A stretch of DNA of 64,000 nucleotides from the NCBI RefSeq assembly GCF_030384885.1, contig NZ_CP128613.1. One strand, written 5' to 3'. The notes under the pieces were generated by a model. That model ran no database searches. It was given only the letters and a program-made list of their open reading frames with translations, and was not told where the DNA came from. Made by a program: the position numbers and the translations under genes. Source of the stretch: Escherichia coli. GTDB taxonomy: Bacteria; Pseudomonadota; Gammaproteobacteria; Enterobacterales; Enterobacteriaceae. This document shows positions 6,536-7,786 of the stretch, piece after piece (positions within the stretch are counted from its first letter, which is position 1; every line of letters starts with the position of its first letter).

Positions 6536-7786
6536 ATGAAAAGGAAAATATTAATTCTTTCCGCTGTCCTCATTTCTCCTTTTTCACATGCTGAGTCATG
6601 GGAAAGCATTACTAAATCCACTTATCAAAGTTCTGCCTATGCTGAAAGTAAGCAAATAACCAATCAGGATGGCTCTAAGATAACGGTTTACTATATTGAT
6701 GCTGCTATGCAGGCCTCCGCTTGTCAGGGTGCTAAATCCAGTGCTCAGAGTGTATTTACTCGGATTAAACCAACTTATGAGGGTATCTGGCCTGATTCTG
6801 AATTCCGTCTTGTTTTTACTGGCGATTGTACTTACAGCGATTCACCAGGGCAGAAGGATAAATATTGGTCTTTAACGGCTTATATTGTTGGTAATATTCA
6901 GCGTTCTGTTCCTGATGAAAAACCTACTGACCCGACACCAGAAGAAATTTGTGAAGCGAAGCCGCCAGAAGAAGGTGTATTTAATAATGTTGATTCATAT
7001 GATGGTGGTCGCTATATCTACTATAACGGCTGTGAATATGAGGCTACTGGTGTCATTGTTTGTCAGGGTGATGGTACTGTTTGCGCTGCAACATGGAAGC
7101 CTACAGGTGCTGTAGCTGACCCCTCTGATAAACCCTCAACCCCCCAAAATGGTGGTGGTGAGTCTGGCGGTGGTGAGTCCGGCGGTGGTGAGTCCGGTGG
7201 TGGTGAGTCTGGCGGTGGTGAGTCCGGTGGCGGTAGTTCTGGCGGTGGCTCTAGTGGTTCCAGTCTTTCTAAAGGTGATATTCAGTCTGCGATCGAAGGT
7301 GCTTCACCCAAAATAGCCAGCGATATTCATGATAAATTAACGGAGAAAGACACTTCATCAGATGATAAAAAAAATGCCGATGAACAAACCAGGAATAATA
7401 TAAATCGTCTTGACGATTCCATTAACAATCTTACGCGGGGGGCTGGCCGTTTTGCTGACCCTTCAGGTGGTGATTCTCGTTATGGAAAGGGCGACTCTGA
7501 ATTAGATGGCGCTTCTACTTTAGCTGATTCTGAATTGGGAATTGAAAAGGATTCTCACGGTGCTTTATGGGAAGCATTTTTAAATAAAGGTGCTATGCTG
7601 CCTAATTTACCCAATGGTAACGGCTGCTCTGATTTTATTATTTTTCCCGGAGAGGTTTATCAGATTGATATTGGTTGCGATAAATTACTGACTATTAAAG
7701 ATGTTCTTTCATGGGTTTTTTATTGCCTTACGTTCTGGTATGTCTTTACTTCTTTAACTTCATTGCTTCGCAAAGGGGGTGAGTGA
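6536..7786 (+). CDS. Minor coat / adsorption protein pIII with Gly-rich linker
   Basis: Start at ATG 6536 (signal peptide [19 protein letters not shown]); (GGGES)n linker; hydrophobic C-terminal anchor. Confidence 0.85.
7151..7258 (+). repeat. 15-bp tandem repeat (GGTGGTGAGTCYGGY, about 7 units) encoding the (GGGES)n / (GGGSS) linker of pIII
   Basis: Direct reading of the repeat units at 7154, 7169, 7184, 7199, 7214 and degenerate units to 7258. Confidence 0.9.

Follow-up and report, generated by a model that had tools for sequence, protein, structure and literature searches.

A tandem repeat within gene III of a filamentous prophage of Escherichia coli, found in the 64,000-nucleotide stretch of DNA analysed here (hereafter the window), very probably codes for the one flexible Gly/Ser/Glu tether in the attachment protein pIII of a UPΦ virus, a tether that gains and loses whole repeat units and changes in length faster than any other character of the phage. 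This tether would join the receptor-binding head, made up of a pilus-binding and a TolA-binding domain, to the C-terminal domain, the anchor of the protein in the virion tip, and, by analogy with the Ff phages and IKe, would let the head reach a pilus and then TolA. The tether is written in near-perfect units of 15 bp, with periodicities of 12 and 30 bp nested in the tract, and this would lead to the gain and loss of whole units, and the pattern of whole-unit differences suggests that this happens most likely via replication slippage or unequal exchange. The reading frame would always be kept in the process, leaving linker length to change faster than anything else in the phage. Glycine-rich linkers of pIII are textbook features and are used in phage display. 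The repeat is real, and variation of its GGGES motif within the UPΦ group is already known from a study published in 2020 (Shapiro & Putonti, Virus Evol 2020, PMC7307601); the observation is accurate and unremarkable. According to that study, GGGES copy-number variation is the main source of gene III diversity in UPΦ, and g3p of UPΦ901 has one GGGES repeat more than the phages of three other isolates. To this our analysis adds three slippage registers, pairs of sequences with identical flanks but different linkers, uniform tandem arrays and the exact position of the linker, which follows both receptor-binding domains.

Gene III (6536..7786, + strand) encodes the attachment protein pIII/G3P of 416 residues plus stop. 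It starts at the ATG at 6536, as do its 1251-bp RefSeq homologues, which are labelled 'attachment protein', and the product is identical to E. coli WP_289787445.1. That protein has two protein accessions, both from a single 4.74-Mb contig, which fits tandem copies. The sequence-only reading had called this ORF pIII, an identification borne out by Pfam matches (PF21443, PF05357), by matches to solved structures (PDB 4eo0, 4eo1, 8b3o) and by the gene order VIII-III-VI-I-IV. Residues 1-19 (6536..6592, +) are a predicted signal peptide, given that the alignment to the IKe G3P structure 4eo0 begins at residue 20 and that pLDDT is low over residues 1-19. The N-terminal pilus-binding domain, of IKe type, spans residues 20-128 (6593..6919, +; pLDDT 86-92); Pfam G3P_pilus-bind (PF21443) matches residues 22-125 (E=2.2e-25, 89 bits vs. 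a cut-off of 27), and this match overlaps that of 4eo0 to residues 20-128 (E=3e-26). Next comes a TolA-binding (N1-type) domain at residues 130-195 (6923..7120, +; pLDDT 82-87), which is matched by a further IKe G3P structure, 4eo1 (E=3.6e-25), and by the fd g3p N1 structures 1g3p, 2g3p and 1tol (E=1e-10 to 1e-13), with Pfam Phage_Coat_A (PF05357) covering residues 135-176 (25.8 bits vs. a cut-off of 20.8). The C-terminal domain, residues 244-416 (7265..7783, +), is predicted to be helical and aligns to the C domain of fd g3p in the fd virion tip structure 8b3o, where a second stretch of similarity pairs query residues 196-413 with chain residues 207-403. Near its end lies a hydrophobic anchor helix (residues 390-411, nt 7703-7768, +), in which W393, T399, F400, W401 and F404 are invariant.

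An AlphaFold model based on a 40-sequence alignment has two confident N-terminal domains (block-mean pLDDT 82-92) and a helical C domain. Residues 206-245 are modelled as coil with pLDDT <50, and the linker that runs from the receptor-binding domains to the anchor domain is predicted to be disordered. In a MAFFT alignment with the pIII proteins of IKe and I2-2, the repeat falls exactly in their Gly-rich region, and the joint between the two receptor-binding domains is a short Pro/Glu-rich stretch at about residues 124-135 that lacks the repeat. As far as sequence and structure matches go, the layout is thus established as IKe-type, comprising a signal peptide, a pilus-binding domain, a TolA-binding domain, a single Gly-rich linker and a C-terminal anchor domain. 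Because the protein has this layout, the earlier statement that the linker separates the receptor-binding domains does not hold; the linker follows both of them and joins the receptor-binding head to the C-terminal virion anchor.

Other known phages share parts of this design. The pIII proteins of IKe and I2-2 (Lineavirus) have the same domain order as that in the window and are 55% identical to it in the MAFFT alignment (50-56% by BLASTP), but in IKe the linker has a greater length and a less regular make-up, with GDTGG, GSTGG and GSSGG strings instead of clean GGGES units. In the Ff phages (f1/fd/M13), the N1 and C domains are homologous to those of the window pIII, whereas the arrangement differs: Ff pIII places the TolA-binding domain first and has two linkers, G1 and G2 (N1-G1-N2-G2-C), while the window protein has the pilus-binding domain first and one Gly-rich linker. 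The Ff linkers, of EGGGS/GGGS type, are invisible in cryo-EM and have been modelled as freely moving strings, with the N domains reaching the pilus and TolA (PMC10175506). By analogy with these systems, the putative role of UPΦ pIII is to bind a conjugative pilus and TolA and so mediate infection. Attempts to infect with UPΦ have been reported in which new infections could not be established (PMC7307601).

The repeat tract itself occupies 7151..7255 (+) and comprises seven 15-bp units that read in frame as (GGGES)5(GGGSS)2, corresponding to pIII residues 206-240; it is the hypervariable tract of the gene. It is followed by a Gly/Ser-rich GSS tail (7256..7264, +, residues 241-243) that shows no variation across the 16 E. 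coli genomes examined. From 7151 onwards the consecutive 15-mers are GGTGGTGGTGAGTCT, GGCGGTGGTGAGTCC, GGCGGTGGTGAGTCC, GGTGGTGGTGAGTCT, GGCGGTGGTGAGTCC, GGTGGCGGTAGTTCT and GGCGGTGGCTCTAGT, after which comes GGT. Units 1-5 are near-identical, with the consensus GGYGGTGGTGAGTCY, and units 6 and 7 are degenerate, agreeing with that consensus at 11/15 and 9/15 positions, respectively (manual count). The initial description of seven near-identical units at 7151-7258 is therefore right about seven in-frame units and overstated about near-identity, which extends to only five. Translation in the frame of the long ORF gives (GGGES)5(GGGSS)2 and then GSS, confirming the Gly-rich linker that had been proposed. 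Tandem Repeats Finder places a period-15 repeat at 7150-7248 (6.6 copies, score 133), together with overlapping rows for periods 30 (score 147) and 45 (score 154). The degenerate 15-mer GGYGGYGGTGAGTCY has five matches in the 64-kb window, all of them head to tail within the pIII repeat, and none in 100 dinucleotide-preserving shuffles. A 55-aa ORF in an alternative frame (7149-7316) was rejected as a gene; it is a by-product of the repeat being read in another frame.

Gene III lies between gVIII, encoding the major coat protein, and gVI in a module with the order II-V-VII-VIII-III-VI-I-IV, the neighbouring genes having been assigned by Pfam: pII (4620-5714), pV (5726-6043), G7P (6046-6132), pVIII (6247-6489), pVI/DUF5455 (7783-8127), pI/Zot (8128-9222) and the pIV secretin (9137-10495). 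The module is part of a complete UPΦ-type prophage unit of 8,575 bp (2702..11276, +), delimited by gene content, by a duplication and by matches to UPΦ901 primers. A perfect 28-bp E. coli dif site (11263..11290, +) marks its right end. Window positions 1-2701 are 100% identical to 8576-11276 over 2,701 bp at a spacing of 8,575 bp, so at least two tandem copies of the prophage are present, the first being cut by the start of the window. At the copy-to-copy junction, near 2688-2715, there is a hybrid, imperfect dif that reads GGTGCGCATAATGT-CAACGCG-TTATGTTGAAAA. On the 3' side of gene IV are two ORFs, 10565-10873 (102 aa) and 10991-11224 (77 aa), which by size and position, the two properties compared, equal the 309-bp and 234-bp hypothetical genes at the same place in ECONIH2. 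UPΦ viruses have two conserved hypothetical genes, h1 and h2, after gene IV (PMC7307601).

From its matches to the UPΦ901 primers and its identity to gene III of ECONIH2, we conclude at the sequence level that the prophage is a UPΦ virus. Primer UPphi_shortFW has an exact match at 7116-7135 (-), directly upstream of the repeat; IntCheck_RV matches exactly at both 2017-2036 and 10592-10611; and UPphi_shortRV matches 6666-6685 with two mismatches. ECONIH2 is an E. coli carrying a UPΦ tandem triple (PMC7307601), and its gene III is 98.6% identical to that in the window. The UPΦ viruses were described as dif-integrated tandem relatives of IKe and I2-2 with E. coli, Salmonella, Klebsiella, Citrobacter koseri and Yersinia enterocolitica as hosts (PMC7307601), and the host names attached to our pIII protein matches, although multi-species and ambiguous, are those of this list. 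Tandem copies that are integrated at the chromosomal dif and meet internally at an imperfect dif, a trait of UPΦ, are also found here. UPΦ901 and its relatives have the GGGES motif, the gene and the dif-integrated tandem arrangement in common with the window (PMC7307601), unlike IKe and I2-2, which are non-integrating and without dif and accessory genes (PMC7307601). In the 'phages' collection there is no close relative; matches there are restricted to IKe, I2-2 and the Erwinia PEar phages, which align to part of gene III with ~70% identical nucleotides. The CUS-1/YpfΦ phages, which are dif-integrated, about 8.6 kb long and found in ExPEC, were entertained as the identity of the prophage; within that group structural genes are near 99% identical at the nucleotide level. 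This candidate was dropped on the strength of the description in PMC7307601 and of the primers from that study matching the window, and UPΦ901 shares <20% identity with YpfΦ in every gene but II and V (PMC7307601).

The window unit (8,575 bp) differs in size from the UPΦ901 query (7,560 bp), and the difference lies in an accessory slot that in the window holds a gene for a 309-aa protein on the opposite strand (2786-3715, -) with AbiJ_NTD4 (8.5e-27) and DUF7014 (1.1e-77) Pfam matches and the RefSeq label 'STM4504/CBY_0614 family'. Elsewhere the same slot is occupied by a death-on-curing-family toxin (KFu015) or by the ECs_2282 zinc-binding protein (ECONIH2 and EC5502), and this position looks like an exchangeable site of the filamentous prophage for genes of a defence-like or toxin-antitoxin-like kind. 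Just beyond the prophage is a gene for a 477-aa leucine-rich-repeat (LRR) protein (12992-14425, -), in which 13111-13770 has a 60-bp (20-aa LRR) tandem periodicity of at least 8 units. In E. coli, homologous regions bear the annotation of a NEL-type E3 ubiquitin ligase; Pfam gave LRR domains only for the protein in the window, which may be truncated or without a NEL domain. The whole flank to the right of dif (11277-19000), which contains ankyrin-repeat, LRR/NEL, fimbrial and antitoxin-like genes, is covered to at least 80% in 2/5,426 complete E. coli genomes, at 96-97% identity. Given this rarity and gene content, the region next to dif is a variable island in its own right.

Copy number of the unit varies between related prophages, as the sequence-only reading had suggested, and it does so by whole units between constant flanks. 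Gene III is present in 50 of the 5,426 complete E. coli genomes, and among the 40 matches listed, which form the length survey, its length takes 23 different values from 1203 to 1386 bp. Of these 40 genes, 38 have a length divisible by 3, the two exceptions being 1-bp deletions unrelated to unit number in EC5502 (a noisy long-read assembly with many frameshifts) and F11 (annotated as frameshifted). The gene was extracted from 16 genomes and fully dissected in 14; the two left over are BH100 MG2017 records, which match K-15KW01 in linker and protein accession. In all 14 dissected genomes, the 615 bp upstream and the 531 bp downstream of the linker are constant in length, and the length change is confined to the linker, which in intact genes of this set ranges from 57 to 240 bp (19-80 aa). 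The differences are of whole units in three registers, namely 15 bp (GGGES, 1-9 copies), 12 bp (GGSS, 0-4 extra) and a 30-bp double unit that is present twice in ECONIH2, three times in BH100-MG2014, four times in K-15KW01 and six times in HB37. Across 13 sequences (12 dissected genomes and the window) there are 12 linker alleles vs. 10 flank alleles. Four pairs of sequences have no substitution in the 1,146 flanking bp, yet their linkers differ. For example, the window (105 bp) and KFu015 (135 bp) have equal flanks, as do ECONIH2 (105 bp), K-15KW01 (180 bp) and HB37 (240 bp). At the level of these allele comparisons, the linker tract is shown to change by whole units much faster than substitutions build up in the rest of gene III. 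Beyond these genomes, database proteins at ≥90% identity have linkers from two GGGES units to an 11-unit GGGES/SGGES run, and more distant relatives keep a Gly-rich stretch composed of GGGDT units or of irregular G/S/D/T/N strings. With tethers of 19-80 aa in intact genes, linker length appears to be only loosely constrained.

No differing linker alleles were found among the tandem copies of a single genome in KFu015 (three copies), HUM3355 (three), ECONIH2 (three) or Res13 (two); EC5502, with 15 copies, is too error-ridden and was left out of this comparison. The uniformity of these arrays implies either that change is too slow to produce heterogeneous arrays or that copies have been homogenised by assembly or polishing. 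In the BH100 substrains, MG2014 and MG2017 are one 30-bp unit apart with no difference in the other 1,346 bp, which could be a change in the laboratory lineage or an assembly artefact. The shortest linker (57 bp, 19 aa) is that of E. coli KE48 'plasmid unnamed1', a record of 385,579 bp with two gene III matches; this suggests either a piece of chromosome that was assigned wrongly or a large replicon that has a dif-like site of its own.

A tandem repeat within a coding sequence that often changes its copy number is also the hallmark of simple-sequence contingency loci. Those loci switch ON and OFF, whereas window gene III changes in graded length and is never off. The frame-shifting by unit number that defines a phase-variable contingency locus is absent from units of 15, 12 and 30 bp, and since all units are divisible by 3, on/off phase variation is ruled out.

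A separate question is whether the length of the tether, which in the sequence-only reading might alter infectivity, is under selection. A hypermutable 'tether-length dial' could match host pili, capsules, O-antigens or periplasm widths and thereby modulate host range or infection efficiency, and such adaptive tuning would sit well with the wide range of linker lengths in intact genes, with the retention of some linker by every allele among the database proteins and dissected genomes, and with the description of gene III as the most variable UPΦ gene, for which host specificity was raised as a possibility (PMC7307601). However, the Gly-rich region of IKe diversified within a few laboratory generations, and a longer region was without measured fitness effect, at least as this work (Bruno & Bradbury 1997) is summarised in PMC7307601. 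In addition, equal flanks combined with very different linkers inside one host species fit neutral drift on a slippery tract, and frame preservation, which follows automatically from units of 12, 15 and 30 bp, is uninformative on selection. On balance we regard adaptive tuning as unlikely. Its fuller version, a selected dial that never turns pIII off and generates virions of different reach for hosts across five enterobacterial genera, we judge somewhat less likely still; if it were true, one prophage lineage could infect hosts differing in pili or envelope thickness.

Apparent length differences in a low-complexity tract could also be produced by sequencing or assembly. Gene lengths that are out of frame (2/40, EC5502 and F11), the many partial pIII entries in the databases that stop near the repeat, and the difference between the BH100 substrains, which could be an assembly effect, all point in this direction. 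Against it, the differences are clean multiples of whole units in which unit-specific synonymous markers (TCT/TCC, GGT/GGC) are kept, identical alleles recur in independent genomes (window and Res13; K-15KW01 and BH100 MG2017), pIII proteins have been deposited independently many times, and isolate-to-isolate variation has been independently published (PMC7307601). Artefact is consequently a very improbable source of the variation. We give even less credence to the idea that the repeat acts as DNA, for instance by forming a hairpin or G-rich structure or by serving as a site of recombination, in the packaged strand or the prophage, with the peptide being incidental. In Ff and CTXΦ, single-strand DNA structures do serve packaging, replication origins and attP, and the viral (+) strand is G-rich here, (GGN)n. 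Nonetheless, the predicted single-strand fold of 7141-7268 (-12.4 kcal/mol) is no more stable than expected from shuffled sequences (-11.6 ± 2.1, z = -0.39), and relatives with GGGDT or irregular units retain a Gly-rich peptide at this position. Because the peptide is kept while the unit changes, it is peptide composition that is conserved, and not the DNA sequence. We therefore favour the repeat as a flexible peptide tether of pIII that varies in length by whole units.

Many deposited pIII entries are partial (186-217 aa) and end at or just before the Gly-rich repeat, which suggests that short-read assemblies often break at the repeat tract or the tandem prophage. The tract thus appears to break or distort short-read assemblies. 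Beyond correct annotation, the finding has little import. With 12 alleles in 13 sequences, the tract is a handy high-resolution typing marker for UPΦ prophages. Finally, the UPΦ prophage is widespread in clinical Enterobacteriaceae, and a possible influence of tether length on its infection or host range would be easy to test.
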